A stretch of DNA of 64,000 nucleotides from an uncultured Candidatus Poseidoniales archaeon (GCA_964386765.1 CAYLUC010000005.1:3201-67200); one strand, 5' to 3'. Positions 4,624 to 51,240 are shown, counted from the stretch's first letter. Notes: generated by a model from the sequence alone, not told the origin. Made by a program: numbers and translations.

Positions 4624-5187
4624 ATGGGACTTCTAGAGAGGATGAAAAAGAAGGAGGAAAGTGAGGAAACTCCAGAGGAAGAATTAGCCCACGAGGCATT
4701 GGAGTATTTCGAGGACAAACTAAGTGAAGTCTCCCCAACAAGGGTACTTTTCGCCTCAATCGCGGCACTGTTGGTCATTTCCGCATCCCTGATAGTAGTA
4801 GCTTGGGTAGTCCCATATGACAGAGTGTCTGTCGATGTGGTCTACAGGCAGGGGGCCGCGGGGCACGTCGTTCTAGCACAGATCAACAATGAAGGCAGCA
4901 GGTCGATAGAGGAAGTATCCCTTGACATCAGATTCCTTGATTCTGAGGGGATCGTCGAGATTGATCGCGCGCACTACGACGTCGACGTGATTACTGCTCA
5001 CACCTCGGTTGCCGGTGATGAACTAGAGCTCATTGTACCCGGGGTTTCTGTATGGGATAACTACACCATAGAGATAATTCTGAGCTATGATAACTATCGA
5101 AACGGGGTCTATATGAAGCAGCCCTACTCAGTCGGTGAGTGGACTATGGAGCTGTTCACAGTCAAATCCCCCCTCAAGATTCTCTGA
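4624..5187 (+). CDS. Single-TM membrane protein with a small beta-sandwich (Ig/CARDB-like) domain
   Basis: Acidic N-terminus, TM (VLFASIAALLVISASLIVVAWVV), then VLAQINNEGSRSIEEVSLDIRFLD; SD GGAGGTGA upstream; ATG abuts previous stop. Confidence 0.7.
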   Translation: MGLLERMKKKEESEETPEEELAHEALEYFEDKLSEVSPTRVLFASIAALLVISASLIVVAWVVPYDRVSVDVVYRQGAAGHVVLAQINNEGSRSIEEVSLDIRFLDSEGIVEIDRAHYDVDVITAHTSVAGDELELIVPGVSVWDNYTIEIILSYDNYRNGVYMKQPYSVGEWTMELFTVKSPLKIL

Positions 5188-5256
5188 ACAAAGATGACTG
5201 AAGTGATGTTCAGTTAACCCATATGCTCAAAATGGTCCTGACAGGGGGCGAGTTCG

Positions 5257-9750: not shown

Positions 9751-9753
9751 AAA

Positions 9754-9775
9754 GCGCGACCCTAAGGGGTCGCGT
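9754..9775 (+). promoter_or_regulatory. C-TAN-G triloop hairpin (copy 2, one bulged G), followed by a weaker TAG-loop hairpin at 9784-9797
   Basis: GCGCGACCC-TAA-GGG(G)TCGCGT starts 3 nt after the S8 stop; then GCCCT-TAG-AGGG(G)C overlapping the likely SD of the next gene. Confidence 0.55.
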
Positions 9776-9803
9776 GGTGCGAAGCCCTTAGAGGGGCGGT
9801 CTA

Positions 9804-12509
9804 GTGCGAAATGCGATGAAGCCAAACAATTCAGCAAGTCTGATAGTGGCGCTACTCGTCCTGAGCCTCTCATCACCACTGGTTTCAGCGGATGTAGACA
9901 TCTCGCTTTCTGCAAATCCCATGACGGCCGAGGCAACAACAGACGATGCCGCTGAATACGACATCGTGATACAGAATTCTGGAGACGACGATGCCTTGGT
10001 CTCCCTAAGCACACAGCAGGGAAATGACTGCAATGGATTCACGTCAACATTGGAATCAACAACCGTTACAGTAGACTCTGGCTCATCTGAAACCGTCAAA
10101 CTAACGGTTTCTGTCTCAGACCAGGCCAACGGAGAATGCGAAACCACCGTCAATGCACAGGGACAGGTATCTGGCGGCATACCGGGAACAGGCTCGAGTG
10201 ACGATGTCACTGTAACTACGACCGCTGGAGACGGAGGGGGTCTTTACTCCGTCAAACTGTCTACTGACGATCCACTCACTAGGAATTACGACGGAGAGGA
10301 TGATGAGGTAACTTGGGAAGTGGACGTCGAGAACAACGGCGAACAACAGGCGAATGTGCAGTTGGAGATGACTTCAGACAGTGATTGCGAGTCCGATGAC
10401 CTGTCAGCCACTGTGGATCCGGCCATCCTCCAGCTGGAGCCAGAAGATGAGGAGTCAGTCACTGTAACAGTCGATATGCCCAATGGGGCTGAGACAGAGG
10501 CAGGCTCCCATTGCTTCATCCTGAGGGCAACCGTAACTAACGACCCCAATGCCGCGGATCAGGCCGAGGATAACCTGACATTGAGCCTAAACGTCCCGGA
10601 GATAAAGGAATGCGAGGCATCACTCCAATTCAGCTCCCACAGCCTCGATCCAGGGGAGTCAGCATCAAACTCATTCGACGTTGAGAACATAGGGAACACG
10701 GAATGGACAGTTACAGCAAACGCACAAGCCCAGGACGGGCATGACATTTCTGGATGGGTAAACTTCGACAGCCCAAAGAGCAAGATGCTCGCGGAGCCCG
10801 GAAGTTCCGATGACTCCCATACATTCACCTTCGACGTAACGCCGGACGACTCTCTAGAAGCAGGGACTCAGATTGCAATAAATATCCAAGGAAGGGCGGG
10901 AACAGCAGTCGGCTGCGAGAAGGTACTCACAGTTACTGTCGGACAAGAGTTCGGTGCATCGATGACACTGAGCAAATCCACCCTCTCGAATGTTGACCCA
11001 GGCTCCTCAGGCTCCCTCTCAATTCAGATTACCAACGAGGGCAATGGACAGGATACCATGGCAATAGGCGCAAACGGACTCCCCCCTGGATGGCAGGTTT
11101 CTCTTTCCCAGTCTTCCGTCACCCTCGGGAGCGCCCAGTCCTCTAACAACAAGCAGACAATATCAGCGGATGTGCTGGTTCCCAATGACGCTAGTGCTGA
11201 GAGTGATGTTGTAATCACTTTCACAGTCGGTAGAGGAGGGGGAACCGAGCCTTATGCCACTAGGGATCTCACAGTCTCAGTTGCAGCCCGACATTCTGTA
11301 ACCACATCATTGGTTTCCGACCAACAGACAGGCCGTTCAGGGCAAATTGTTCAATTCCCCATAGAGGTGACAAACTCAGGAAACATTCAGGACACGTTCA
11401 GATTGCAGGCATGTGATCCCGGTGACATGACTGGTTGTAGCAGTCCGATGTGGGAATCGTCCTTCTCGGATACTAATGGTAACTCAATCACGCAGGTGGT
11501 CCTTGATCCGGGTCAGAAACAAACCGTCTATCTTGATGTCCTGGTGGAGGGGGAGGAAGATGCAGATTCCGCCAAGGTCCTAGCAAGAGTTGCTATTTAT
11601 GGAACCTCGGAAGTAGACGAGCACACAGTAACAGTCGTTGTCTCAAACTACAACTACGGGATGGCAATATCACCTCAGAATCCAGGGGAGGTACCAAGCC
11701 AGATAGACGTGATCCTTCCCCCGGGTGGCACGCTTTCCACCTTCTTCTGGGTAGAGAATACAGGGGACTACCCAGCTGGGGATACTGCCGTGATTACCAT
11801 CTCTGGAATGGACTCGTCAGTCATCAGGCAAATGTTTGTGGAAGGGGTGCAGATTGATGGCACGATTCAGATCGCCAAGGGAGAGAGAGTACTTGTCGAG
11901 GTACAAATGGAAGTCCTCGAGGGAGTCGCGAATGGGGTCTCTGGGATAATCAAGGTAAACGCCGCCTCCGAGAGGAACGCGGCCCAGACTACCACAGTGG
12001 ATGTAATAATCCAAGTGATGACCATTCACGATCTTAGATTCACATTGGAGAGTTCGTCCGAACAGACGGCCAACTATCCAGAGAAACTCTACTTCTCGCT
12101 TTTCGTAACCAACCACGGAAACATCGTTGAGGAGGTCGAGATACTGTCAAGCGACTCTCTAAGGGGTTGGACGGTTGACGTGGTGGAGGACGAGTTCGAT
12201 CTTCAGCCCGGAGAAACGAGGGAGATTGAGGTCAGAGTAACACCTCCCTCAGAAATGATTGATGATGATACCTACAGGTTCACCATTACAGTTCAGCCAA
12301 AGGGAATACCAGTGGCAGGCCAACCAATCGAACTGAAGGTCACATCCAAGGTTTCGAACCCCTTCCTAAACTTGTCAGATGAGGTCGAAGAGGCACTCGT
12401 CTATGGCCTGACTGGGTTGGGGACATTGCTAGTGGTAGTCCTCTTCTTCCGCTCGAGGGCAGAAAACAGAATGATACGAAAGGCCCTCGAAGAAGAGGAC
12501 GAATCCTAG
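9804..12509 (+). CDS. Secreted Ig-like repeat protein (COG1470/NEW3-CARDB-like) with C-terminal TM anchor
   Basis: Signal peptide; about 7 modules with (V/I)xNxG[N/D]xxD and LxPGE motifs; paired Cys in several modules; TM LVYGLTGLGTLLVVVLFF. Start GTG 9804 or ATG 9816. Confidence 0.85.
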   Translation: MRNAMKPNNSASLIVALLVLSLSSPLVSADVDISLSANPMTAEATTDDAAEYDIVIQNSGDDDALVSLSTQQGNDCNGFTSTLESTTVTVDSGSSETVKLTVSVSDQANGECETTVNAQGQVSGGIPGTGSSDDVTVTTTAGDGGGLYSVKLSTDDPLTRNYDGEDDEVTWEVDVENNGEQQANVQLEMTSDSDCESDDLSATVDPAILQLEPEDEESVTVTVDMPNGAETEAGSHCFILRATVTNDPNAADQAEDNLTLSLNVPEIKECEASLQFSSHSLDPGESASNSFDVENIGNTEWTVTANAQAQDGHDISGWVNFDSPKSKMLAEPGSSDDSHTFTFDVTPDDSLEAGTQIAINIQGRAGTAVGCEKVLTVTVGQEFGASMTLSKSTLSNVDPGSSGSLSIQITNEGNGQDTMAIGANGLPPGWQVSLSQSSVTLGSAQSSNNKQTISADVLVPNDASAESDVVITFTVGRGGGTEPYATRDLTVSVAARHSVTTSLVSDQQTGRSGQIVQFPIEVTNSGNIQDTFRLQACDPGDMTGCSSPMWESSFSDTNGNSITQVVLDPGQKQTVYLDVLVEGEEDADSAKVLARVAIYGTSEVDEHTVTVVVSNYNYGMAISPQNPGEVPSQIDVILPPGGTLSTFFWVENTGDYPAGDTAVITISGMDSSVIRQMFVEGVQIDGTIQIAKGERVLVEVQMEVLEGVANGVSGIIKVNAASERNAAQTTTVDVIIQVMTIHDLRFTLESSSEQTANYPEKLYFSLFVTNHGNIVEEVEILSSDSLRGWTVDVVEDEFDLQPGETREIEVRVTPPSEMIDDDTYRFTITVQPKGIPVAGQPIELKVTSKVSNPFLNLSDEVEEALVYGLTGLGTLLVVVLFFRSRAENRMIRKALEEEDES

Positions 12510-12590: not shown

Positions 12591-12599
12591 GTGTGCATA

Positions 12600-13046
12600 A
12601 TGTCGACAGTCCCGGAGGACTATCTAGCAGTGGCTGTAATGGCCCTAGTGGGCATCGGATTCCCTGTAATGAGCTTCATCGCATCGGGCTTCCTTAGGCC
12701 CAGAAAGACTGGTAACGACCCAAAGAAATTGAGCTCATGGCTTCTGCCAGGTTACGAGAGTGACCAGTCACTCTACATCCGTAGAGACAGCACATATGAG
12801 TGCGGAGCGGACCCTGTAGGGGACGCCCACATCAACTTCCACTTCCAATACTACTGGTATGCGATAATCTTCCTCGTCTTCGACATCGCATTCATGTTCA
12901 TGGCATTCGGGGGTGTCGTGGCGATACAAGAAGGAGTGGAATTGAGCGGGATCTATAGCGCACTCGCAACACTCACTGCATTCATCGTCCTGATGGGGCT
13001 AGGGGTATGGCATGTATTCCGAAAGAGAGGAAGAATATACATCTGA
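12600..13046 (+). CDS. nuoA: Complex I-like oxidoreductase subunit A
   Basis: YECG loop, YYWYAIIFLVFDI motif, 3 TMs; ATG 12600 preferred over GTG 12591 (SD AGGTG). Confidence 0.95.
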   Translation: MSTVPEDYLAVAVMALVGIGFPVMSFIASGFLRPRKTGNDPKKLSSWLLPGYESDQSLYIRRDSTYECGADPVGDAHINFHFQYYWYAIIFLVFDIAFMFMAFGGVVAIQEGVELSGIYSALATLTAFIVLMGLGVWHVFRKRGRIYI

Positions 13047-13055
13047 GGTGATTAA

Positions 13056-13649
13056 ATGACAGACGACCAGAATTATGCAGTTTTCAACAGCAGGATGTTG
13101 GTTGATACCGTCGGGGATGTTACGGACGAGGCCCTGAAGGCAAGTCGAATAAAGGACATCATTGGAGTTATCGCTGGCAGAATTTTCAACTGGGGACAGA
13201 GAAAGTCGCTCTTCCCCCTCCACCTTGGAATCAAGTGCTGTGCCTTGGAGATGGCCGCTGCGGGAGCTAGCAGATTCGATGCTGAGAGGTTCGGCGTCTT
13301 CTTCCGCTCCAGCCCCCGTCAGTGCGATGTACTATTGGTAAACGGCCCGATTAGCAAGAAGTTCGCTGACCCGATAGTTAGGCTATGGGAGCAGATGCCA
13401 GAACCAAAGTGGTGCATAGCAATGGGTGAGTGCGCTATCTCAGGAGGGCCATACTTCCAGTCATACAACATTCTGGAAGGCGTGGACACTGTCATACCAG
13501 TCGATGTGTACATCCCCGGATGCCCGCCAAGGCCGGAGGCTCTCATCGATGGTTTCGACAAGTTACGCCAGAAAATAATCCGAATAGGCGCTATGCCAAG
13601 TAGTGACAGACCAGAAACTCAGAGGCCACTGATTGCGGGAGACTTGTGA
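13056..13649 (+). CDS. nuoB: Complex I-like subunit B (N2 Fe-S cluster)
   Basis: CCALEM, SPRQCD, MGECAISGG and DVYIPGCPPRPE motifs. Confidence 0.97.
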   Translation: MTDDQNYAVFNSRMLVDTVGDVTDEALKASRIKDIIGVIAGRIFNWGQRKSLFPLHLGIKCCALEMAAAGASRFDAERFGVFFRSSPRQCDVLLVNGPISKKFADPIVRLWEQMPEPKWCIAMGECAISGGPYFQSYNILEGVDTVIPVDVYIPGCPPRPEALIDGFDKLRQKIIRIGAMPSSDRPETQRPLIAGDL

Positions 13650-13658
13650 GGTGAATCA

Positions 13659-14318
13659 ATGGGCAGAGTAGTTCCGACTTCTACACAGAAGGCATCTGCC
13701 GAGAAGCTATGCAAGGCAGTCTCGAAGATGAAGGGGGTCGAAGCAGAACCAGTAGAGAGAACAAGCGGAACGAGTCCCCGATGGACAGTTTCCGTAGTAT
13801 GTGAGGCAGACAATTGGAGGGCGCTCGCAGAGAAGCTAAGGGAGACTCACTCCGTCGACTACTGCTCAATGATTACTGGAATTCATTGGCCAGAGGGGCC
13901 GGACGAGAAGAAATGGGAAGTTGTCTACCACTTCCTAAGGACAGGTGTGAAGAACCCACCTTCATCGGACGGAGTTCTGCAGCCGATAATTACCGATCCA
14001 AACGCGGTCAAGGGCAATGACGTCCCTCTTGAGATAGAAGTCAGCATCAGGCTTCCAGACACCAGAACGCCATCTGTAGCAAGCATCCAAGATATCTGGG
14101 TTGGGGCTGACTGGAATGAGAAGGAGACATGGGACTTGGTTGGCATAGATTTCGATGGGCATGCTGGGATGAGGAGGGTTTTGCAGCCTCATGAAACACC
14201 AACTGGGTACCACCCTCTGCAAAGGCATCACAATTTGAGGTATCACGGGTTCGAGGAGATGTACGACGACGCTCAAGGATTCGGACGTAAGCCGGATGAC
14301 ATTGGAAAGGTAAAGTGA
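13659..14318 (+). CDS. nuoC: Complex I-like subunit C
   Basis: PSVASIQDIWVGADWNEKETWDLVGIDFDGH...HPL motif; position in operon. Confidence 0.93.
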   Translation: MGRVVPTSTQKASAEKLCKAVSKMKGVEAEPVERTSGTSPRWTVSVVCEADNWRALAEKLRETHSVDYCSMITGIHWPEGPDEKKWEVVYHFLRTGVKNPPSSDGVLQPIITDPNAVKGNDVPLEIEVSIRLPDTRTPSVASIQDIWVGADWNEKETWDLVGIDFDGHAGMRRVLQPHETPTGYHPLQRHHNLRYHGFEEMYDDAQGFGRKPDDIGKVK

Positions 14319-14327
14319 GGCGATATA

Positions 14328-15464
14328 ATGGCAGAAATGTGGATATCAATGGGACCTCAGCACCCAATGACACACGGCCTCTGGACACTCAAGATCAAGG
14401 TCGACGGTGAAACGGTCATTGACACCGTACCAGATCTGGGATACATCCACAGGGGAGTGGAGAAGATATGCGAGACCAGGGATTTCACGCAGATTACAAC
14501 CTACTGTGACAGACTTTGCTACGCCAGCGCGAATACCTGGTCGCATTCCTACATCTATGCGGCCGAGGACCTCTTGGGAGTGGAAGTACCAGAACGTGCA
14601 GAGTACATCCGACTCATCGCAGTCGAGCTCCAAAGGATAGCCTCGCATCTAATGTGGATGGGTGCATACGGCCCCGACACAGGAAACCTCTCGGTAATGG
14701 TGTGGTGCCTCAGAGAGAGGGAGATGATGATGGATCTACTCCAGGAATTGGGCGGTTCTAGAATGCACTACAACTTCCCCCGAATAGGAGGTGTCAAGAG
14801 AGACCTTCCTTATGGATTCGTACAGAGGGCCAGATCCAAACTGCATCTCTTCCTACAGAGGATACAGGAGTATGAGGCCCTCTTCGATGAAAGCACGGTA
14901 TTCTTGGTCAGAACCCAGGGAGTCGGTTATGCCAAGCCAGAGGAAATGATCAACCACGGCGTTTCGGGACCGAACCTACGTGCAGGAGGAGTCAACCATG
15001 ATGTTCGCTGGGCCCACCCTTATTCGGTCTACAGTGAATTAGACTGGGAGCCACCAGTTGAGAGGTCCTCGATAAAGGGGGCCGACTGCTATGACAGGTA
15101 CCGAGTAAGGATCGAGGAGATGAGGGTGAGTGCCCTCATGGTCCTCCAGGCAATGGAGAGGATACCGGGGGGCTCCGACACCTATCACGAACCCGGAGAC
15201 CCAAAGTTGCTGGCCAAGGCACCCAGCAGAGCTCCAGAGGGAACCAGCGGATACCATCACTTCGAAGACAGCAGGGGCGAGTCGATGTTCTACCTTGCAG
15301 GAGGCGGGGATGGCCGTGGAAAGAGCCCCTATCGAGTCTCAATAAGATCTCCTATGTTCATCACAATACCCTATGCCTCGAAGTGCATGATAGGGTACAA
15401 AGTCGCTGACATCCCTGCAATAATGGGATCATTCGACCCTTGCATAGGAGAAACCGACAGGTGA
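14328..15464 (+). CDS. nuoD: Complex I-like subunit D
   Basis: MGPQHPMTHG, GYIHRGVEK, DRLCY, C-terminal DPCIGETDR; no NiFe CxxC pairs. Confidence 0.97.
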   Translation: MAEMWISMGPQHPMTHGLWTLKIKVDGETVIDTVPDLGYIHRGVEKICETRDFTQITTYCDRLCYASANTWSHSYIYAAEDLLGVEVPERAEYIRLIAVELQRIASHLMWMGAYGPDTGNLSVMVWCLREREMMMDLLQELGGSRMHYNFPRIGGVKRDLPYGFVQRARSKLHLFLQRIQEYEALFDESTVFLVRTQGVGYAKPEEMINHGVSGPNLRAGGVNHDVRWAHPYSVYSELDWEPPVERSSIKGADCYDRYRVRIEEMRVSALMVLQAMERIPGGSDTYHEPGDPKLLAKAPSRAPEGTSGYHHFEDSRGESMFYLAGGGDGRGKSPYRVSIRSPMFITIPYASKCMIGYKVADIPAIMGSFDPCIGETDR

Positions 15465-15468
15465 TATA

Positions 15469-17004
15469 ATGGCTAGTAGCGATTGGCTGGATTTGAATGG
15501 GTGGTTTGGTTCAATCATCGGGTGGTCTATGGATCAAACCCACGATCTACTGCCCGACTCAGACTACAGCCTCGGGCCATTTGGTTCTCTAAATCCACAG
15601 TCAGGGTTCGCTTCCATCCAGCCAGCATTAGAATCCTTCTTCCATGCCACAATTATGTGCACGGTGGTGTTTACCACTCTGATGCTCACAATGCTTGCAA
15701 TACCCTACATCGAGAGGAAATTCATAGGTCGACTTATGGACAGACTCGGAGCAACAACAACTCTGAGAAGCCTCTGGGTCGGAGAAAGTGGAGTGACTGC
15801 AGGCGAATGGTGGAACCAGTTACCATTTGGCATTGGTACCCCTCTGGGCTGGGTCATCAACACTCTGAACGCGAACTGGGGCAACGACCACAAGCTAGAG
15901 ACAGTCTCTAGGGTCAACAACAGAAGCTACCACGGCTACTGGTTCCTCCTTCCCGGCTTCTTCCAGGCATTCGCTGACTTCTTCAAATTCGCAACCAAGG
16001 AGCACCTAGTTCCGAAGGACGCGGACAGAGTCGTCTTCGAGGTAGCCCCAGTCATCATAGTAGGCACAACCGTGATGGTATTCGCCTTCGTCCCCTTCGG
16101 ACCACATATTTACGCTGCAAATCCCGATCTCTCCCTGCTATTCATGATGGCCATTTTCGGAGTCGCACCACTGGGCGTGTTCTTCGCAGGGTGGGCCTCC
16201 AACAACAAGTACACGCTAATCGGTGGAATGAGGTCCGCAGCACAACTAACGGCCTACGAGATCCCGCTCCTAATCACGGTACTAGGGGTGGCCGTACTGA
16301 GCGGCTCCCTGAACATCATCGAAATCGTGGACTTCCAAATGGGCCAAGATGAGGGCAACGTTTGGAACATATTCCTGATGCCTCTCGGAGCAGCACTATT
16401 CCTGATCACGATGATTGCCGAGGTTGAGCGAATACCGTTCGACATGCCCGAAGCAGAGGCGGAACTAGTAGAGGGTTGGTGGACTGAGTACGGTGGAATT
16501 AGGTGGGGCCTAATGTTCTCTGCAGAATACATGAGATCCTATGCAGCTTGCATACTGTTCGCACTCTTCTTCCTGGGTGGTTGGGAAGCACCATTCCAGC
16601 ACACACTATCGGATCTACCAATTGCAGGGGTCGTATTCTCCACACTGTTCAATTTGATACCAGGGCTCATCTGGGTACTTCTGAAGGCGTGGCTCCTCTT
16701 TGCGGTCTTCGTTTGGATCAGGGCTTCCCTTCACAGAGTGAGAACGGATCAGATATTGGAGTTTGGCTGGAGGTACCTCCTACCACTTTCAATGCTAAAC
16801 CTCGTGGTTGCTATCTATCTGAGACTCGAGCATTATGATGGGGGGAATTGGGATCTGTGGGTGCCTGCAGTTGTCTCATTAGTCTCTCTTATTCTTTTCA
16901 TAGTCTACCTGATGGATGAAGACGAGGAGGCATTGGATCTCCAGAGGCGCCCATATAGCACTCAAGCAGTAATCAAGGCCTCGCCAGGGAGCCATAGGGA
17001 TTAG
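15469..17004 (+). CDS. nuoH: Complex I-like subunit H with N-terminal extension and ~65-aa loop insertion
   Basis: ERK...QAFADFFKFATKE, WASNNKYTLIGGMRSAAQLTAYE, ERIPFDMPEAEAELVEG motifs. Confidence 0.96.
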   Translation: MASSDWLDLNGWFGSIIGWSMDQTHDLLPDSDYSLGPFGSLNPQSGFASIQPALESFFHATIMCTVVFTTLMLTMLAIPYIERKFIGRLMDRLGATTTLRSLWVGESGVTAGEWWNQLPFGIGTPLGWVINTLNANWGNDHKLETVSRVNNRSYHGYWFLLPGFFQAFADFFKFATKEHLVPKDADRVVFEVAPVIIVGTTVMVFAFVPFGPHIYAANPDLSLLFMMAIFGVAPLGVFFAGWASNNKYTLIGGMRSAAQLTAYEIPLLITVLGVAVLSGSLNIIEIVDFQMGQDEGNVWNIFLMPLGAALFLITMIAEVERIPFDMPEAEAELVEGWWTEYGGIRWGLMFSAEYMRSYAACILFALFFLGGWEAPFQHTLSDLPIAGVVFSTLFNLIPGLIWVLLKAWLLFAVFVWIRASLHRVRTDQILEFGWRYLLPLSMLNLVVAIYLRLEHYDGGNWDLWVPAVVSLVSLILFIVYLMDEDEEALDLQRRPYSTQAVIKASPGSHRD

Positions 17005-17018
17005 TCGGAGGTGAATAA

Positions 17019-17981
17019 ATGAAATACAATACAGGACATCCAAGAGCCACTCCAAACTTCAGAAATTTAGTCATAAGGCCAATGTGGATGACGCTGAAGA
17101 CCGCTCTGCGAACCGTGCCATTCCTAGGCAGGCTAAACTTCCTGAGAAACAGCTACCACGGCGAGTACGAGAAAATGGTCGACCCCGTGACTAGGGAAAG
17201 GGTCGGTGAGGGGCATCCCAGCGTTGGCCAGAAGTTCGCAGCGGACCGTGAGACTAGCCAGATAATGCCGTTCTTGGAGAGGCCAGTCACAGTAATGTAT
17301 CCGTACGAGAGGCTCGAAGATCTGGAGCCTTGGCTATTCGTCCCAGGGAACTACAATGGTAGGATAGGCGTAATCTGGGAGACTTGCACTGCTTGCAAGG
17401 CATGTGTTAGAGCCTGCCCGAATGACTGCCTGCACATGACCTCCGAAGTAAGAGTCGATGTCCTTGACACTGCTGAGGAGGGCGACGAATGGCATGGATA
17501 TGGGAATGATTTCGAGGAGGGAGGTTTTGCAGCTAGGCCCAGGGAGGATTCTGGAGCAGAGGATTTCGACCTCATGACCGCACATGCCGCAGCCCCTTCA
17601 GAGTACGATTTTGCTGAGGTGATAGACCTCACTGGCGACAAGGCGACAGTCCGTTGGATGGATGGATCGGGCGTAGAGACGCTGGATACCTCAGATCTCA
17701 AACCAGCGGAGAAGGACATCGTCTCCGGAAGGATAGACCTTGGCAGATGCATGTTCTGCGGACTATGCATGGAGGCGTGCCCCTTCGAGTCGTTCTTTAT
17801 GACGAACGAGTACGACGGAATGTCAGGATTCTCTAGACAAGATCTATGGATGGATGCAGACCGAACAAGGGTCCTGCCATCTACTCACAAGGAACGAGTC
17901 GACATGGAGCTCGCCAAGCGCGCCGAGAAGGAGAAGAAGAAGAGAGAGAGAAAGGCGGCAAAGGCCGAAGCGGAGGCATAG
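17019..17981 (+). CDS. nuoI: Complex I-like subunit I (2x[4Fe-4S]) with long N-terminal extension and inter-cluster insertion
   Basis: TVMYPYE; CTACKACVRACP and IDLGRCMFCGLCMEACP motifs, 111 residues apart. Confidence 0.93.
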   Translation: MKYNTGHPRATPNFRNLVIRPMWMTLKTALRTVPFLGRLNFLRNSYHGEYEKMVDPVTRERVGEGHPSVGQKFAADRETSQIMPFLERPVTVMYPYERLEDLEPWLFVPGNYNGRIGVIWETCTACKACVRACPNDCLHMTSEVRVDVLDTAEEGDEWHGYGNDFEEGGFAARPREDSGAEDFDLMTAHAAAPSEYDFAEVIDLTGDKATVRWMDGSGVETLDTSDLKPAEKDIVSGRIDLGRCMFCGLCMEACPFESFFMTNEYDGMSGFSRQDLWMDADRTRVLPSTHKERVDMELAKRAEKEKKKRERKAAKAEAEA

Positions 17982-17983
17982 GA

Positions 17984-18253
17984 ATGGGAATAGACTTCGA
18001 GGCGATAATGTTCGTGATCCTATCCGCGGTAACCGTCGCAGGGGCAATTGGTTGCGTTTACGGAAAGAGAGTCGCCCACTCACTCCTATTCCTGATGCTT
18101 ACCTTCTTCGGCGTAGCAGGAATATTCGTACTTGCGAGTGCAGAGATGCTCGCAGCCGTACAGATACTTGTCTACCTGGGCTCCGTGATGCTAGTGGTTC
18201 AGTTCGGAGTAATGCTAACACGCAAGCAAATTCAGGAAGGTGACATAGAGTGA
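17984..18253 (+). CDS. nuoJ: Complex I-like subunit J, N-terminal half
   Basis: AHSLLFLMLTFFGVAGIFVLASAEMLAAVQILVYLGSVMLVVQFGVMLT; ATG 17984 (the ORF-track start 17846 overlaps nuoI). Confidence 0.9.
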   Translation: MGIDFEAIMFVILSAVTVAGAIGCVYGKRVAHSLLFLMLTFFGVAGIFVLASAEMLAAVQILVYLGSVMLVVQFGVMLTRKQIQEGDIE

Positions 18254-18525
18254 GATTCCTATCTGTAGTTACTAGGCTGGGCGTCGTCGCCTTCGTTCTC
18301 GTACTGCTTAGGGAGGTCATGGATCCAGCAAACTGGCCCGCTGTCCAAGAGGGGGCCGCCCAACCCTCCACACTAGATCTGGCGAATGCGCTATTCGATG
18401 AATGGGCAGTAGCTACGATTGTACTGGGTGCCCTTCTTGCAATGGCGATGATTGGTGCCTCGTACTTGGTCCGTGATGAGAGACTGATAAACTTGGTTTG
18501 GGACATGGGGGGAGATGACCAATGA
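18250..18525 (+). CDS. nuoJ: Complex I-like subunit J, C-terminal half
   Basis: LANALFDEWAVATIVLGALLAMAMIGASYL matches the NuoJ C-terminal helix; lies between nuoJ-N and nuoK. Confidence 0.8.
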   Translation: MRFLSVVTRLGVVAFVLVLLREVMDPANWPAVQEGAAQPSTLDLANALFDEWAVATIVLGALLAMAMIGASYLVRDERLINLVWDMGGDDQ

Positions 18526-18824
18526 TAGACCCCAGTTGGATAGCAGGACTGGGGGTCATCCTCTTCGGAATAGGTCTGATAGGTGCATTCTCTAGGAAGA
18601 ATGCCATAGTGGTCCTCATGTGCATCGAGGTCATGTTGAACGGCGCAAACCTCAACTTCGTTGCCGGCACTATGTACTGGGGGGGACCTGATGGCTGGGT
18701 ATTCACTACAATTGCCATAGCAATAACAGCTGCAGAGGTGGCAATAGGACTAGCGATATTCCTTTCCCTTTACAGCACTCAAGAGACGATATCCCTGGAT
18801 GAGGCGAACATCCTGAGGAACTGA
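18522..18824 (+). CDS. nuoK: Complex I-like subunit K
   Basis: KNAIVVLMCIEVMLNGANLNFV and AAEVAIGLAI motifs. Confidence 0.96.
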   Translation: MIDPSWIAGLGVILFGIGLIGAFSRKNAIVVLMCIEVMLNGANLNFVAGTMYWGGPDGWVFTTIAIAITAAEVAIGLAIFLSLYSTQETISLDEANILRN

Positions 18825-18830
18825 GGTGGA

Positions 18831-21131
18831 ATGATGAGCGAGAACAAGAGCGAGGCAGGACTACTCGTCTACATCCTCCCATTCCTAGCAATAGTGCCAC
18901 TCATGCATTACCAAGGCTGGGAATCTTCAGACTCGGCCATCCTCATTGTCGCTGTCCCATTTGTCACATTCCCAGTGATTCTTGTGGCGGGCCAACTCTA
19001 CAACGGTCATGAGACATGGAAGAACAAACTGAAGGAGGGGGGAATACTAGCTCTTGGAGCTCTGGGAACATCACTCTCAGCTGCGGTTTGGATTATTTAC
19101 GACTACTTCGACGCTCTGCCAGATTTCGGGGATCAGCACAGCATCTCCCAGTGGCTGGAATGGGTGTCATTCGATCTCCTCCAGTCAGACTACACCTTGA
19201 CCGCGGAAACCAATATCCTAGGAGTCGGAGTATGGGTTGACTCGGTAACTCTGATGCTTCTCTTCGTTGCCACTTTCCTATGCTTCCTCATTTGCTGGTT
19301 TAGCCTTGGATACATGAACACGGATCCAATTAACGACGACAGGAACCATAGATTCTACGGTGAATTCGTCCTGTTTGCTTTGGGGATGTTTGGCATGGTT
19401 CTGGCTGACAATTTCCTCTGGCTATTCATATTCTGGGAGATAATGGGCCTCTGCTCCTATCTGTTGATTGGATTCTACTACTGGAAGGAAAGTGCAGCAT
19501 ACGCGGCCAAGAAAGCCTTCCTTACCACCAGGGTGGGGGACGTCTTCCTTATGGTCGGGCTCTTCATGCTCTACGACATCTACGGGTCACTGGAGTTCTC
19601 CGTAATATTCCACGACCCATCACTGCATGGGACCGTAGATTCCGCAGAACTATTCTGGGCACTTCTGATGATGTTCATCGGAGCTGTTGGAAAATCAGCA
19701 CAGTTTCCCCTACACGTCTGGCTACCTGATGCCATGGAGGGGCCAACACCGGTATCCGCACTAATCCACGCTGCCACGATGGTGAACGCGGGACTCTATC
19801 TGGTAGCGAGAATGGTCCCCTTCGTTGACGTAGGGCATCATGGGGTTCCGGGACTGGAGGATCTGGGGCTAATCGTCGCCTATGTGGGAGGGATCACGGC
19901 CTTCATGGCAGCTGCCATAGCCTTCGTCCAGAATGACATCAAGAAGGTATTGGCATACTCTACAATGAGCCAATTAGCGTACATATTCACGGGCCTTGGG
20001 TCAGCTCTCTGGTTCTACAACCACGATGAGCATCATGCTGCAGTAGTGGTATTCGGGGCATCCATGTTCCACCTATTCAACCACGCAATGGCAAAGGGGA
20101 TGCTATTCATGGCGAGCGGTTCGGTAATTCACGAGGTTCACCATGCCCATGACCACCTACACCATGGTAATGGGAATCACGAACATTTCGATCCACAAGA
20201 CATGCGGAATATGGGCGGCTTGGCTTCCAAGATGCCTATCACAGCAACGGCAATGATGGTTGGTTCGATGTCCATTATTGGTATTCCCCTTATTGGCGGA
20301 TTCTGGTCGAAGGAGGGGATAATAGCAGAAACATGGCTAGCAGCACTCGATCACGAACCACTCATGATAGGCCCGGCCATACTTGTCATACTCACTGCGG
20401 GAATGACAGGTTTCTACATGTCAAGAATGTGGTTCATGACCTTCGCTGGGGAGCCAAAGAGCGATGTTGTCGATCATGTACACGAGGCCACTCCTTGGAT
20501 CAAAGAACCACTGATCATATTGACGGTGATTTCCGCACTGGGGGGTATCGCATTCGCTCTCCTTGGCGCTACAGACTACCTATCCTCATCGTATGGTGAT
20601 TCGGGACATCTCAAGCTCCATGAGTCCACATTCATTGATTCAGTCATCTATCAATTGGAACATGCATTCCTCCCTGAGAACCAGAATCTTAGATTAGTGG
20701 GTTGGGTCACAATTCTGCTCTCCTTCATTATCGGGCCAATTTTCGCCGCCAGAATCCACGGAGGCTCCTTAGCGGAGGGAGAATCAGCTACCTCAGCAGT
20801 ATCCTGGCTGGTCGGAATTTCAGGCAAGTTTGGAAGCCAGGACGTCAGCTCCCTTTCCGAATCAGATTTGGCAGAGGCCCTAGAAAAAAGGCTATATTTC
20901 GATGATTTGTATGAGGGGCTTCTAGCAAAGACAGTTTTGCCAATGGCGGCTTTCGCAGCATGGTTCGACAGAACTGTAATTGACGGTGTAATCAAGCAGA
21001 TAGAGTCGAACTCAGTCTCTGGATCTCTCCAAATTAGGACAATAACCACCGGTAGTGCCCGTGATTACATACTCATGGCAGCAGTAGGAATGCTGTCGAT
21101 TATTGCATTGATATGGGGGATCAGCGCATGA
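18831..21131 (+). CDS. nuoL: Complex I-like subunit L
   Basis: FWEIMGLCSYLLIGF, GKSAQFPLHVWLPDAMEGPTPVSALIHAATMV, KKVLAYSTMSQL motifs. Confidence 0.97.
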   Translation: MMSENKSEAGLLVYILPFLAIVPLMHYQGWESSDSAILIVAVPFVTFPVILVAGQLYNGHETWKNKLKEGGILALGALGTSLSAAVWIIYDYFDALPDFGDQHSISQWLEWVSFDLLQSDYTLTAETNILGVGVWVDSVTLMLLFVATFLCFLICWFSLGYMNTDPINDDRNHRFYGEFVLFALGMFGMVLADNFLWLFIFWEIMGLCSYLLIGFYYWKESAAYAAKKAFLTTRVGDVFLMVGLFMLYDIYGSLEFSVIFHDPSLHGTVDSAELFWALLMMFIGAVGKSAQFPLHVWLPDAMEGPTPVSALIHAATMVNAGLYLVARMVPFVDVGHHGVPGLEDLGLIVAYVGGITAFMAAAIAFVQNDIKKVLAYSTMSQLAYIFTGLGSALWFYNHDEHHAAVVVFGASMFHLFNHAMAKGMLFMASGSVIHEVHHAHDHLHHGNGNHEHFDPQDMRNMGGLASKMPITATAMMVGSMSIIGIPLIGGFWSKEGIIAETWLAALDHEPLMIGPAILVILTAGMTGFYMSRMWFMTFAGEPKSDVVDHVHEATPWIKEPLIILTVISALGGIAFALLGATDYLSSSYGDSGHLKLHESTFIDSVIYQLEHAFLPENQNLRLVGWVTILLSFIIGPIFAARIHGGSLAEGESATSAVSWLVGISGKFGSQDVSSLSESDLAEALEKRLYFDDLYEGLLAKTVLPMAAFAAWFDRTVIDGVIKQIESNSVSGSLQIRTITTGSARDYILMAAVGMLSIIALIWGISA

Positions 21132-22720
21132 TTAACGATCCCCTCTCCGTAATCACGCTAGCTCCACTGGCAGTAGGGCTGGCTCTCCTGATCCTCCCCA
21201 AGATCCTCAGTTCTGCTGAAGGTCTGGCCCGTGCCTCTAGGGCGATAAGCATGGGTGTCGCCCTCGCCATGCTAGCCATAACCACAATGATATTCTTAGG
21301 GGAGATTGGGAGCATAGACTGGACAGATTATGGCTCCGGATACTCGCTAACAAACGAGTCATTCCTCTTGATACCATCAATAGGAGTCTCATGGACAGTC
21401 GGCATAGACGCCCTATCATTCCCAATGGTATGGCTAACGACATTACTAATCCCAGTCTCAATGCTAGTCGAGTGGGATGCAAAGAGGGGACACTTATTCC
21501 ACCCGTTAATCCTAATCATGGAAGGGGCATTGATAGGGGTATTCGTGTCTCTGGACATGTTCGTATTCTACGTATTCTGGGAACTGACCCTAGTCCCCAT
21601 GTTCTTCCTGATTATGGTTTGGGGAGGCGATGACAGGAGGTACGCCTCGATGAAGTTCTTCATCTACACATTCACGGCGAGCGTTGTCATGCTCATTGGG
21701 ATACTGGTCATGTACCTCTATACCCCGGATGTGGCCGGTTCGGGGACCATCACTGGGCACACATTCGATCTCGGGGTAATGGTATCCTCCGCATCCAGCA
21801 TTCCAAGTGAGGGGCTAAGGCATCTTGTTTGGATTCTGCTTCTGATAGGGTTCGCAACGAAGATGCCTAGCGTACCAGTTCACACATGGCTCCCCGACGC
21901 CCACGTACAGGCTCCCACAGCCGGGTCGATGCTCCTTGCTGGTGTCATGCTGAAGATGGGAGCATACGGTTTCCTGAGAATAGCAGTAACCGCTCTTCCA
22001 GAGTCAACCATGGTATTCATCCCTCTCCTGTTATTCCTCGGGATGGTCAGCCTAGTCTACGGGGCATGGGTGTGCATGGGTCAAACAAACCTCAAGAGAA
22101 TGGTAGCTTACTCTTCAGTTTCCCACATGGGGCTCATTTTCCTTGGAATAGCGACCATGCAGCCTCTTGGAATCGCTGGAGCTCTATTCATGATGTTCGC
22201 TCATGGGATCATAAGCCCGCTTCTTTTCGCAGTGGCTGGGGCGTTCAAGCATCACTATCACACTCTAGAAATAGGCTCTATGAGGGGAATCGCGCACCAT
22301 AGCCCATGGCTAGCAGGACATATGATGCTAGGGTGGATGGCCAGTCTCGGACTTCCCCTTCTGGCCGGTTTCGTTGCAGAGGTAACGGTTCTTATCGCCT
22401 TCTGGATGTCATTCGGGTGGCTGGTATTGTTGCCTGCCTTGACGCTGATAATTACAGCCGTTTACTACCTGACTTCAATGCAGAGGACAATCTTCGAGTC
22501 CAATGATCCGCACCAAGGAATACTACCAGATTCCCTACACGGTGAAGACCCCTCGGACATCACATGGCACGAGAACGCAGGGATGCTGATACTGGGAGCA
22601 TTGACGGCATTATTCGGGATCTTGCCATTCATCTTCTGGGACATGATGTCTGACTGGAGCTCAGGATTCATGATTGACGTTCTAGTCCAAGCAATGGAGT
22701 CAGAGGGGGTGAATCCATGA
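21128..22720 (+). CDS. nuoM: Complex I-like subunit M
   Basis: FYVFWELTLVPMFFLI, KMPSVPVHTWLPDAHVQAPT, LLAGVMLKMGAYG motifs; ATGA overlap with the nuoL stop. Confidence 0.97.
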   Translation: MINDPLSVITLAPLAVGLALLILPKILSSAEGLARASRAISMGVALAMLAITTMIFLGEIGSIDWTDYGSGYSLTNESFLLIPSIGVSWTVGIDALSFPMVWLTTLLIPVSMLVEWDAKRGHLFHPLILIMEGALIGVFVSLDMFVFYVFWELTLVPMFFLIMVWGGDDRRYASMKFFIYTFTASVVMLIGILVMYLYTPDVAGSGTITGHTFDLGVMVSSASSIPSEGLRHLVWILLLIGFATKMPSVPVHTWLPDAHVQAPTAGSMLLAGVMLKMGAYGFLRIAVTALPESTMVFIPLLLFLGMVSLVYGAWVCMGQTNLKRMVAYSSVSHMGLIFLGIATMQPLGIAGALFMMFAHGIISPLLFAVAGAFKHHYHTLEIGSMRGIAHHSPWLAGHMMLGWMASLGLPLLAGFVAEVTVLIAFWMSFGWLVLLPALTLIITAVYYLTSMQRTIFESNDPHQGILPDSLHGEDPSDITWHENAGMLILGALTALFGILPFIFWDMMSDWSSGFMIDVLVQAMESEGVNP

Positions 22721-24420
22721 TATCCCTTGGCCAACTAAACTTAGATTCAGAAACCGCATTCACGCTATTGCCGGAATTGGTAATGCTAATCGGCGTATTG
22801 GCAATAATACTCATTCCAAACCTCGGTAATGCAACATTCAGAATGCCCCTGACCAATTTCAGGGTCCCAATTCTAATCGGAGGCTCAAGGTTCGAAACTA
22901 CGAATGACCCACGTATGCCCAACCGAATCGCTACTGCCACCTTCGCAATAGCCTTCGCATCCTCCCTCTTGATGATCGATAGCACCTCGGAAGAAGTAGG
23001 CGGACTACTGAGGTCAGACGCGTTCAGTCGACTATTCTCTGCTATGTTCATCGGTGCCTTGCTACTGGTATCCGTCGCAACCACACATAGGATTCCAGCT
23101 AAGAAAAACGCCAGAGTTCCAGAAGATGGAGACTCTGAGGTAACCACATCGAGGAAGATGGCTGCCCTCATCGACAATAGGAGGCAGGTAGACTTCCACA
23201 TACTGCTAATCATGGTAGGATTGGGGATGAGTCTGATGGCCATGTCGACTAACCTGTTCATGCTCGTAGTCTGTATTGAGTTGGCTTCACTGTCGACCTA
23301 CGTCCTCGTCGCGTTCCACAAGGAGGAGGATGTCGGGGGCGAGGCCGGTGCGAAGTACTTCATCGTGGGCTCAGCTGCTTCTGCAGTCGGAATTTACGGA
23401 ATGTCACTACTGTACCTGTGGTCAGGAGACCTATCTCTCGACGCCCTGGCAGAGAAGTGGGGACAGATGCAAGGAATGGACCCATTCGCAGCCTTTGGAA
23501 TCGGGCTGATGATGGTGGCCTTCGGATTCAAGGTTAGTGCTGCGCCCTTCCATCTCGCAGCACCAGACGCGTACTCTGGAGCTTCATCACCAGTCTCGGG
23601 CCTACTCGCAACCGCATCTAAGGCCATGGGATTCGTTGCATTGATCAGGGTTCTAGTAATGATTACCGTACCGGATTTCGGAGAAGAGACAACATGGTTC
23701 CTGATGCTGGCAATCATATCAGTAGTTACGATGTCATGGGGGAACCTTGCGGCACTAACTAGCGAGAACCCAAAGAGGATGCTGGCATACTCCAGCGTTG
23801 CTCATGCAGGGTACATGCTAGCGGCCATTTCAGTGGTCGGGAGCGGCCTCGCTGGAGAGGAAGGTACGAGAATTATCCTAATCGCCATTACGTTCCATCT
23901 CGCAGTACTGGTTCTGTTCAAGCTGGGTGCCTTCCTGGTCCTATCCCTCTTGGAAACAGAGGGAAGGGGGCACCGAATGCAGGATCTCCACGGACTAGGC
24001 AAGAGAGAGCCTCTGATTGCCGGCTCGATGTTCCTCTTCATGCTCTCACTGGCAGGAGTTCCACCATTGTCGGGATTCCTGTCAAAATTGCTGATGGTCA
24101 ACGGAATAGTCTCTTCCTCGGCAGGAACTGGAAGCTCATCGACAACTGACGTCTACTCTTGGATGGAATCTGTGGACCCCATCTTCTGGCTCGCAGCAGC
24201 TATCGTGGCCAACAGTGCGCTGTCGCTCTTCTACTACCTCAGGTTGAGCCTAGTCATGTTCTTCGAAGAATCTGACAAGTCCTCGAGACTGAAATCGGCA
24301 CCCTCTCTGAGAATGGCAATAATGGCTTGCGCAGTACTCACAGTCTTGTGCGGGATAGGCCCAGTAAGCGAGTGGCTAGTCAGTCTAGTCACCACTTCTA
24401 TTGAGTCTCTGATGGGCTAA
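22717..24420 (+). CDS. nuoN: Complex I-like subunit N
   Basis: EAGAKYFIVGS, FKVSAAPFHLAAPDAYSGA, KRMLAYSSVAHAGY, SLAGVPPLSGF motifs. Confidence 0.96.
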   Translation: MISLGQLNLDSETAFTLLPELVMLIGVLAIILIPNLGNATFRMPLTNFRVPILIGGSRFETTNDPRMPNRIATATFAIAFASSLLMIDSTSEEVGGLLRSDAFSRLFSAMFIGALLLVSVATTHRIPAKKNARVPEDGDSEVTTSRKMAALIDNRRQVDFHILLIMVGLGMSLMAMSTNLFMLVVCIELASLSTYVLVAFHKEEDVGGEAGAKYFIVGSAASAVGIYGMSLLYLWSGDLSLDALAEKWGQMQGMDPFAAFGIGLMMVAFGFKVSAAPFHLAAPDAYSGASSPVSGLLATASKAMGFVALIRVLVMITVPDFGEETTWFLMLAIISVVTMSWGNLAALTSENPKRMLAYSSVAHAGYMLAAISVVGSGLAGEEGTRIILIAITFHLAVLVLFKLGAFLVLSLLETEGRGHRMQDLHGLGKREPLIAGSMFLFMLSLAGVPPLSGFLSKLLMVNGIVSSSAGTGSSSTTDVYSWMESVDPIFWLAAAIVANSALSLFYYLRLSLVMFFEESDKSSRLKSAPSLRMAIMACAVLTVLCGIGPVSEWLVSLVTTSIESLMG

Positions 24421-50471: not shown

Positions 50472-51230
50472 CTACATTCCCAGTTTTCGGGCCAACATTG
50501 CTAGAGGGTCGTAGTATTCTGTGACAACTCTCTCTTTGAGTGGTATGATTGCATTGTCTGTGATGTTAATTCCAGCTGGGCATACCTCTGTGCAGCATTT
50601 GGTAATGTTGCAGTAACCAATGCCGAAGTCATCCTTTATTTCTGGGATCCTGCTTTCCTTGTCTAGGGGGTGCATTTCGAGGCTTGCTAGCCTAACGAAG
50701 AATCTAGGCCCAGCAAACTCATCGAATTTCTGATGCTCCCTTAGTACGTGACAGGTATTCACGCACAGCATACATTCGATACAAGACCTGAACTCCTGGA
50801 CTCTGTCCGCTTCTTCTTGATTGAACTCCCAGTCAAGCTCATCGGGACCGTTTATTGGGACAATTTTCCTATCCGTCTCATATGCCCAAGAAACATCAGT
50901 GACTAGATCCTTGACTAGAGGGAATGATTGCATGGGTCTGACTAAGATAGGGGTATCTTCGGGAGTCTCCTCCAGAATGTCCTCCATTCTGGTCATGCAC
51001 ATCAGTCTTGCTTTACCATTGACCTCTGCACTGCAGGAACCACACTTTCCAGCTTTGCAATTCCACCTGCAGGAGAGATCAGGGGCATGTTCTGCCTGAA
51101 TTCTGTGAATCACATCTAGGACGACCATGCCCTCATCCATCTCAACGGTGTAGTCAACCATCTTTCCAAATGGGTCACCTACTGAGTCTGGAGCCCCTCT
51201 AAAAACTCTGAATGTCACTTTTTCGCTCAT
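50472..51230 (-). CDS. sdhB: Succinate dehydrogenase Fe-S subunit (Sdh1/type F-like)
   Basis: WNCKAGKCGSCSAE..CMT, CIECMLCVNTC, CNITKCCTEVCP, NAIIPLKER motifs. Confidence 0.95.
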   Translation of the reverse strand: MSEKVTFRVFRGAPDSVGDPFGKMVDYTVEMDEGMVVLDVIHRIQAEHAPDLSCRWNCKAGKCGSCSAEVNGKARLMCMTRMEDILEETPEDTPILVRPMQSFPLVKDLVTDVSWAYETDRKIVPINGPDELDWEFNQEEADRVQEFRSCIECMLCVNTCHVLREHQKFDEFAGPRFFVRLASLEMHPLDKESRIPEIKDDFGIGYCNITKCCTEVCPAGINITDNAIIPLKERVVTEYYDPLAMLARKLGM

Positions 51231-51240
51231 TCAATCACTC

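Follow-up and report, generated by a model that had tools for sequence, protein, structure and literature searches.

The window analysed here, a stretch of 64,000 nt from an uncultured Candidatus Poseidoniales archaeon (GCA_964386765.1, CAYLUC010000005.1:3201-67200), carries a complex I (nuo) operon whose nuoI gene contains the features collected in Table 1. Among the operon products, Pfam matches were obtained for NuoA, NuoB, NuoC, NuoD, NuoH, NuoJ (in two pieces) and NuoL, while the calls of nuoK, nuoM and nuoN rest on ORF order and on conservation in related loci. The nearest genome records are Poseidoniales (Marine Group II) MAGs, mostly Thalassarchaeaceae, and the top record is Euryarchaeota archaeon UBA4 at 98% identity. 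nuoI is the sixth gene of the operon, and its placement next to nuoH and nuoJ is kept in 80 of the 80 loci retrieved.

Table 1. Features of the nuo operon and of nuoI (window coordinates; residues are those of NuoI)
Feature	Residues	Position	Strand	Basis
nuoA-B-C-D-H-I-J1-J2-K-L-M-N operon, without nuoEFG		12591..24420	+	ORFs and Pfam
nuoI, 320 aa, roughly double the canonical length		17019..17981	+	Best PDB and NCBIfam matches NdhI, NuoI and TYKY; sits between nuoH and nuoJ
Extra N-terminal segment, between the N-terminal amphipathic helix and the RPVTVMYPYE core	41-87	17139..17279	+	
First [4Fe-4S] motif, C123-x2-C126-x2-C129-x3-C133-P134	C123-P134	17385..17420	+	
Hairpin strand 1, homologous to NdhI strand	H139-A152	17433..17474	+	Colinear alignment; AlphaFold strand 139-146
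Insert part a, acidic, glycine-rich	E153-E195	17475..17603	+	Alignments, conservation, models
Insert part b, predicted SH3/Tudor-like small beta-barrel	Y196-A230	17604..17708	+	AlphaFold, Foldseek
Hairpin strand 2, homologous to NdhI strand, runs into second motif	E231-R243	17709..17747	+	
Second [4Fe-4S] motif, C244-x2-C247-x2-C250-x3-C254-P255	C244-P255	17748..17783	+	
C-terminal E/K/R-rich helix, net charge +4	289-320	17883..17978	+	AlphaFold

The operon lacks the genes of the NADH-oxidising end of the 14-subunit enzyme. The last base of nuoD is 15464 and nuoH begins at 15469, which leaves room for no nuoE, nuoF or nuoG, and there is therefore none of the three within the operon. The same abutment of nuoD on nuoH and an identical gene order are found in 80 Poseidoniales loci, with nuoEFG in none of the 80; the D-H gap is at most 19 nt in 72 of 77 loci, and the bigger gaps are incomplete alignment ends. 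A crude motif scan of 1.41 Mb around the operons returned no NuoF motif. Neighbourhoods were examined over the operon plus 10 kb on either side at the 80 loci, and no conserved redox partner gene was found beside the operon in that range. Upstream lie surface proteins; downstream come genes for eIF-1A, for a RIO kinase and for a protein with a KH domain. The eIF-1A gene behind the operon marks the organism as an archaeon. A scan of the window for Fe-S motifs returned NuoI and an SdhB-like gene and no others. NuoD is of the quinone type, since its best PDB matches are Nqo4 and NdhH (E 4e-80) and not a [NiFe] hydrogenase large subunit, and it has a lone Cys at each of the positions of the hydrogenase CxxC pairs ('GVEKICE', 'DPCIGETDR'). 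A sequence-only reading of this DNA had described the enzyme as NuoEFG-less, and had raised the co-occurrence of an insertion in NuoI with the absence of nuoEFG as a point to check. Both are borne out at the level of the operon across the 80 loci, the insert having been seen only where the nuo operon is without nuoEFG. The literature on Marine Group II, genome papers included, terms the enzyme 'canonical' and gives no subunit detail, and no paper pairing NuoI with Marine Group II was found in the literature searched. None of the RNA runs searched contains the nuoI sequence. Further Marine Group II subunits are extended as well, NuoH to 511 aa and NuoL to 766 aa, beside the N-terminal segment of NuoI itself.

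That the gene encodes NuoI is supported over most of its length. Both cluster motifs are present (CxxCxxCxxxCP, twice; Pfam Fer4, E 2e-12), and the likeness to NuoI and NdhI extends past the ferredoxin core into a PxxYPYE segment and a TxEY segment after the motifs. With canonical NuoI, Nqo9 and TYKY the protein shares both motifs, the PxxYPYE segment, the N-terminal helix and the operon position, and it differs in the span between the motifs, which in those proteins is without the 81 extra residues described below. Marine Group II NuoI is a known subunit in a new form and no new kind of system. Its top NCBIfam matches are the NuoI and NdhI models, but it stays below the curated NuoI cut-offs; its score against TIGR01971 (cut-off 113 bits) is 71 bits, or 78 bits once the insert is taken out. 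In public records the protein is called '4Fe-4S binding protein', 'hypothetical' or by a generic COG name, the first two because the score falls below the curated NuoI cut-off. Alignment with NdhI begins at NuoI residue 88, corresponding to NdhI residue 34-36. The extra segment ahead of it (residues 41-87) has no Pfam match at E<=10 and is kept across the family with a dN/dS of about 0.05. At the other end of the protein, the helix at residues 289-319 is modelled by AlphaFold with a pLDDT of about 83. The sequence-only reading had a Lys/Arg-rich C-terminal helix here, of which the helix and the 12 K/R of the last 34 residues stand; the composition is nevertheless mixed E/K/R, with 8 D/E in the same residues, and the net charge of the tail is no more than +2 to +6 in nearly all of 113 homologues.

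The principal feature of the protein lies between the two cluster motifs. C133 and C244 are 111 residues apart in Marine Group II NuoI as against 30 between C73 and C103 in T. elongatus NdhI, and 81 residues are therefore extra; among the solved NuoI-like chains matched here the same span differs by no more than about 10 residues. When the whole of NuoI was searched against the PDB, NdhI, NuoI and TYKY matched as two blocks (residues 88-139 and 231-277). Once E153-A230 had been deleted, a single colinear block aligned with residues 34-133 of chloroplast NdhI (E 4e-17), and in this insert-deleted alignment the joined stretch CPNDCLHMTSEVRVDVLDTA|EKDIVSGRIDLGRC matched a 31-residue stretch of NdhI. 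Colinearity after the deletion therefore places the roughly 81 extra residues at the tip of the inter-motif beta-hairpin. In 6hum_I the corresponding sequence reads CPINLPVVDWVFN-K86-EL-K89-K-K91-ELKHYSIDFGVC103, and since K86, K89 and K91 form the hairpin tip in that chain, they mark the exact splice point of the Marine Group II insert. The tip lysines of NDH-1 are missing in Marine Group II NuoI; on the stem, K228 and K232 vary, and no stem lysine is conserved. The insertion of about 80 aa that the sequence-only reading had proposed at 17445-17714 (residues 143-232), with a barrel-like segment at 17604-17705 (Y196-P229), is thus confirmed in size and in coordinates, and so is its acidic character. 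Residues 140-230 (91 aa) hold 24 D/E against 6 K/R, with a pI of 4.05, whereas NuoI without the insert has a pI of 8.5. In its conserved charge the insert is the opposite of every characterised ferredoxin-docking surface.

Length, sequence and charge of the insert are all kept. Of 115 homologous proteins only one departs from a spacing of 109-113 residues between the motifs. Full-length homologues from metagenomes number 113, most with a spacing of 110-113, and the whole insert-bearing sequence was recovered in independent marine metagenomes. Compared in pairs, the sequences are 58-71% identical over the insert and 89-93% over the core, and dN/dS is about 0.04 against 0.011, rough values given that dS is saturated; the insert changes about four times faster than the core. 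Part a contains a near-invariant motif, H159-G-x-G-x-E-x-E-x-G-G-x-A-A172, in which H159, E164 and E166 are invariant, as is H189 further on; the invariant residues of part b are F198, G206, A209 and W213. Across all 113 sequences the region between the motifs carries a net charge of -13 to -23 (mean -19), while NuoB, NuoC and NuoD of the window carry -1, -6 and -8, respectively. Since the charge is kept throughout the set and is far above that of these three subunits, the acidity is specific and not a background property of the proteome. Judged from the codon comparisons the insert is under strong purifying selection and, given its near-fixed length, dN/dS and conserved charge together, it is therefore a selected domain.

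The insert occurs in both Poseidoniales families, Poseidoniaceae and Thalassarchaeaceae, with the most divergent cluster (P0128, named Poseidoniaceae) at 50% identity in the insert. Among the matches listed, all of them from Poseidoniales, it is confined to that group. An exhaustive phmmer search of 1.84 billion representatives returned no homologue of the insert outside this NuoI family apart from marginal matches (E 2e-4 to 7e-4). The marginal match that was checked, P0138, falls within the Big_3 Ig-like repeats of a very large surface protein, and another is a junk repeat protein; they are read as a shared beta-hairpin motif and not as homology. No sequence homology of the insert to NdhS, NdhV or NdhO was detected, and Pfam returned nothing for it even at E<=10, i.e. 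no membership of an SH3, Tudor or KOW family.

Structure prediction assigns a fold to the second half of the insert. In an AlphaFold model of the full-length protein (22 close homologues) residues 196-230 have a pLDDT of 86-92, although the mean over the whole model is 47; the ferredoxin core is poor, and the position of the insert relative to the clusters is not readable from this model. A model of the insert by itself (62 sequences; mean pLDDT 65) has the same strands at a pLDDT of 70-86. In both runs the barrel is composed of strands 196-205, 208-213, 219-223 and 228-230, plus a strand at 170-174, and in the insert-only model residues 139-146 pair with 228-238 as the stem of the hairpin. 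Part a is mostly of low confidence apart from 170-174, with the weakest stretches at residues 149-162 (pLDDT below 50) and 186-189. Two Foldseek runs against the PDB each gave a top 50 made up entirely of small SH3-like barrels of the SH3/Tudor/KOW class, at best E-values of 0.011 and 0.028 and with no match at E<=0.001. The matches include the Spt5 KOW domain, the myosin N-terminal SH3-like domain, Src-family SH3 domains and the Tudor domains of Tudor-SN, SMN, FMRP and Krimper; a designed SH3 barrel, 7uwz, matched with a TM of 0.64-0.67 at an rmsd of 2.2 A. From the NDH-1 structure 6nbq of T. elongatus, chain O, presumably NdhO, ranks 22 and 4 in the two runs (E 0.04, TM 0.56, rmsd 8-9 A). 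NdhS and PsaE, the latter also of SH3-like fold, are within the top 50 of neither run. An SH3-like barrel fold class is accordingly supported for the insert as a prediction, and the small SH3/Tudor-like barrel that the sequence-only reading had seen at this place reappears in both AlphaFold runs and, at E-values of at least 0.01, in the class of the Foldseek matches. The same reading had suggested a comparison of the fold with NdhS, PsaE and Tudor domains; the Tudor/SH3 class is returned by it, but neither NdhS nor PsaE is. There is no support for homology of the insert to any known family of SH3, Tudor, NdhS or PsaE proteins, and neither sequence homology to NdhS or PsaE nor a Pfam match was found.

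Additional information about the likely setting of the insert can be drawn from enzymes in which electron entry has been studied. In NDH-1 the NdhI hairpin, a long loop, rises above the hydrophilic arm (Pan et al., PMC6992706), and ferredoxin and NdhV grip this hairpin from opposite sides, with the ferredoxin cluster 9.6 A from N6a (PMC6992706). In the Fd-NDH-1L structure K86, K89 and K91 of NdhI contact ferredoxin in a highly positive pocket, ferredoxin being bound by NdhI in the same manner as by PsaC, and NdhS, NdhV and NdhO are small compact subunits at the apex (PMC7021789). NdhS lies about 25 A from ferredoxin and has an indirect role as a foothold for NdhV, while NdhO suppresses ferredoxin-dependent quinone reduction at the donor site and has been proposed as a negative regulator (PMC7021789). 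In E. coli, F92 on strand 2 of the hairpin lines cluster N6a (PMC8357420). The homology of the anchoring hairpin to that of NDH-1 suggests for the insert an anchorage next to the distal cluster N6a, whose ligands would be C123, C126, C129 and C254 by ferredoxin topology. With an anchor at the hairpin tip beside N6a the insert would therefore not lie away from the distal cluster, in line with the location near that cluster that was expected of it.

The Marine Group II enzyme shares with NDH-1 its 11 core subunits, the absence of NuoEFG, seen here at the level of the operon, and presumably electron entry at N6a of subunit I. In NDH-1 the inter-motif hairpin of that subunit is central to the donor pocket, and it is at the tip of this hairpin that the insert of Marine Group II is found; small compact proteins, the SH3-like NdhS among them, occupy the NDH-1 apex. 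The two differ in that the additions of NDH-1 are separate subunits around a positive pocket (K86/K89/K91), whereas those of Marine Group II form one fused, acidic domain from which these lysines are absent. A further likeness is to photosystem I, in which PsaC, accompanied by PsaD and PsaE, is likewise a protein with two [4Fe-4S] clusters; this is a different complex, with accessory proteins as separate subunits and a near-neutral pocket. Additions to core subunits at the positions of accessory subunits are known from E. coli (NuoI C-terminus, NuoB and NuoF tails, NuoG G-loop; PMC8357420), but those strengthen the joint with an N-module, which is missing here, and are extended peptides or a loop and no folded barrel set into the hairpin of NuoI. 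In Bacillaceae, whose complex I has 11 subunits, an N-terminal extension of NuoC has been proposed to contact an unknown partner protein (PMC3144371). It resembles the insert as a lineage-specific addition to the Q-module of a NuoEFG-less enzyme and differs from it in subunit and in position.

The arrangement may point to a lineage-specific accessory domain that has been fused into NuoI at the electron-entry apex and remodels the entry site, a reading for and against which the chances are about evenly balanced. More generally, the module probably lies at the donor site and shapes it, with the orientation to N6a taken from the anchoring points. The insert could play in cis the part that NdhV, NdhS and NdhO play in trans in NDH-1, propping the hairpin and setting which proteins may approach N6a. 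Since the NDH-1 hairpin is clamped by ferredoxin and NdhV, an insert at its tip would have to make a wall or a lid of the pocket that feeds electrons to N6a. The loss of the ferredoxin-binding lysines together with the strong acidity suggests electrostatic selection, by which a positive partner surface would be recognised and a basic partner drawn in, or acidic ferredoxins and other acidic proteins would be steered or kept out. Docking of an acidic ferredoxin onto lysines, as in NDH-1, would not be expected of the insert. If some part of the insert is an interface that becomes ordered on binding, the best candidate is the HGxGxExExGGxAA segment, which is flexible in the isolated models. Whether the barrel itself directly binds the physiological donor is a separate matter, and that it does so is rather unlikely. 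NDH-1 and other NuoEFG-less enzymes work without the insert, which is therefore not required for this type of enzyme. This counts against the accessory-domain reading, and so do the moderate quality of the models, the Foldseek E-values of at least 0.01, the conserved acidity and the finding of no candidate partner gene near the operon.

Weighing on the other side of the accessory-domain reading is the existence of lineage-specific extensions that are purely stabilising, and of the rival explanations it is this one that fares best, though it is on the unlikely side. The insert would then be a stabiliser or shield over the surface of NuoI and N6a that NuoG covers in the 14-subunit enzyme, protecting an exposed [4Fe-4S] cluster against O2 and ROS in an aerobe of the surface ocean and stiffening the peripheral arm, with no part in donor recognition. 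In E. coli the extensions (the NuoI C-terminus among them) and a 94-residue loop of NuoG triple the inter-module contact area and overlap the accessory subunits of other species, and contact area is their sole known role (PMC8357420). The lengths of NuoH and NuoL and the N-terminal segment of NuoI suggest a general decoration of the Marine Group II enzyme, and the roughly fourfold faster evolution of the insert relative to the core fits the same picture. Marine Group II inhabit ROS-rich surface water (PMC10783094). On the other hand, the conserved net charge that the 91 residues carry, about -19, is far beyond that of the neighbouring subunits and is not needed for packing, and the most conserved stretch of the insert, HGxGxExExGGxAA, is predicted to be flexible when alone, which is typical of an interface that becomes ordered on binding. 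Moreover, NdhI of NDH-1, an enzyme that is NuoEFG-less in oxygen-evolving organisms, has no such insert.

A stronger version of the accessory-domain reading, which is improbable as it stands, takes the Gly-rich loop, the barrel and the E/K/R helix together as a built-in adaptor that recruits a positively charged input protein specific to Marine Group II onto N6a. The partner may be the orphan RnfB-like polyferredoxin that many Marine Group II genomes are reported to encode; a dehydrogenase is another candidate. If true, this would be a new type of electron input for complex I, unlike both NuoEFG and the ferredoxin pocket of NDH-1.

The contrast in pI between the insert and the rest of NuoI allows another construction, in which the insert is an acidic pseudo-substrate or regulator that folds onto a basic pocket of NuoI and NuoD, mimics an acidic ferredoxin and gates N6a as a negative regulator, as has been proposed for NdhO. 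The pocket of NDH-1 is highly positive and NdhO there suppresses ferredoxin-dependent quinone reduction (PMC7021789); in Marine Group II NuoD, K297 and R301 lie near the positions of K315 and K321 of NdhH, although the alignment of that NuoD loop is uncertain. Chain O of NDH-1 is among the best structural matches, but as a match it is weak at an E of 0.04 and an rmsd of 8-9 A, and there is no evidence of alternative conformations. This explanation is given little credence.

Equally hard to sustain is the function that the sequence-only reading had favoured, i.e. a ferredoxin-docking module of the NdhS/PsaE type, either by homology or by strict analogy, to which an acidic ferredoxin would bind with the basic tail assisting. 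The predicted SH3-like fold, the location on the hairpin that contacts ferredoxin in NDH-1 and the K/R of the C-terminal helix speak for it. So does a Lys-rich C-terminus of FpoI in Methanothrix that has reportedly been proposed for ferredoxin binding; on FpoI lysine tails nothing was found in the literature searched. The insert has no sequence likeness to NdhS or PsaE, however, neither of which reaches the structural top 50, and its charge of about -19 is set against only +2 to +6 for the tail in almost all members. The hairpin lysines are not conserved, and the strong acidity of the insert argues against classical docking of an acidic ferredoxin. A basic surface complementary to such a ferredoxin is not what the family presents, with its -13 to -23 and missing tip lysines. 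The premise taken from NDH-1 holds in that NdhS is an apex subunit and fails in that NdhS, at about 25 A from ferredoxin, makes no contact with it and acts indirectly (PMC7021789). An artefact or junk, whether misassembled sequence, intein or neutral spacer without order, has next to no probability: the low pLDDT of residues 149-162 and 186-189 would suit it, but an in-frame insert of near-fixed length in 115 proteins and 80 genomes, at a dN/dS of about 0.04, too short for an intein and without intein motifs, and found whole and in the same sequence in independent marine metagenomes effectively refutes it by length, conservation and dN/dS.

The accessory-domain reading bears on a broader problem. 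For decades it has been a standing question what supplies the electrons of the 11-subunit complex I in archaea and in many bacteria (PMC3144371, PMC11238625). One of the most abundant archaeal groups of the surface ocean has here rebuilt the very loop to which the donor binds in the one enzyme of this type with a solved donor complex, and the insert could serve as a handle on what feeds archaeal complex I. At about 80 residues it is defined, conserved and soluble-looking, and could be used as bait in pull-downs or in multimer-prediction screens with the ferredoxins, flavodoxins and orphan Fe-S proteins of Marine Group II. As the insert pushes NuoI below curated thresholds, metabolic reconstructions of Marine Group II could miscount the subunits of complex I.

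Lineage-specific additions are present on several subunits of the Marine Group II complex I. In NuoH the Pfam NADHdh domain spans only residues 163-448, and judged from these limits its N-terminal part holds roughly 115 extra residues and its C-terminal part some 60. The length of NuoL is given in the table below. NuoI has, besides its insert, another segment peculiar to the lineage, about 45 residues long and placed between an amphipathic N-terminal helix and the conserved core. A Pfam search with this segment gave no match, and it is conserved within the family (dN/dS approximately 0.05).

Features of the nuo operon and surrounding genes (window coordinates)
Feature	Position	Description
Three very large ORFs	241-12509	1460, 1497 and 901 aa; immediately upstream of nuoA
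NuoH	15469-17004	511 aa
NuoI	17019-17981	
NuoI second segment	17139-17279	residues 41-87
NuoI insert motif	17493-17534	near-invariant H159-G-x-G-x-E-x-E-x-G-G-x-A-A172
NuoI insert H189	17583-17585	invariant
NuoI barrel stretch	17604-17680	EYDFAEVIDLTGDKATVRWMDGSG
nuoJ, both ORFs	17984-18525	
nuoJ, first ORF	17984-18253	matches Oxidored_q3 positions 1-65
nuoJ, second ORF	18250-18525	matches Oxidored_q3 positions 80-146
NuoL	18831-21131	766 aa
Succinate dehydrogenase-like pair	50472-53094	minus strand

The acidic part of the insert between the two NuoI [4Fe-4S] motifs is otherwise variable, yet carries both the H159-A172 motif and H189. The two His and two Glu residues could form a metal site. 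The predicted barrel that follows resembles the motif 'EYxxGExLDLTGLxVTAxYSDGS' in the Big_3 (PF07523) repeats of P0138, a giant bacterial surface protein. Matches of such giant proteins to the barrel reached phmmer E values of 2e-4 to 7e-4, a significance probably inflated by the repeats, and the resemblance, read from sequence, probably reflects a common hairpin motif.

NCBIfam NuoI models score the protein at 71 bits, and at 78 bits with the insert removed, against a cut-off of 113 bits. Because of these scores, the subunit is publicly named '4Fe-4S binding protein' or 'hypothetical protein', and it may escape automated tallies of complex I subunits in Marine Group II.

The two nuoJ ORFs overlap by 4 nt, and the halves lie side by side in all 80 Poseidoniales loci. 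The two-ORF nuoJ is therefore a conserved split gene, and a frameshift error is excluded. One of these loci, PAJW01000011.1, holds a full Marine Group II-type nuo operon under the deposited name 'Gammaproteobacteria bacterium isolate SAT84'; the contig is probably mis-binned or mislabelled.

Among the surrounding genes, the smallest of the three large upstream ORFs encodes a strongly acidic product with a signal peptide that, by its sequence, looks like a surface protein. A comparable large acidic ORF is kept upstream of the nuo operon in 58 loci. The Fe-S subunit of the succinate dehydrogenase-like pair (252 aa) contains 'CIECMLCVNTC', and the adjoining 617-aa ORF we take, from position alone, as a putative flavoprotein subunit. 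Genes of complex I and complex II are thus about 26 kb apart.
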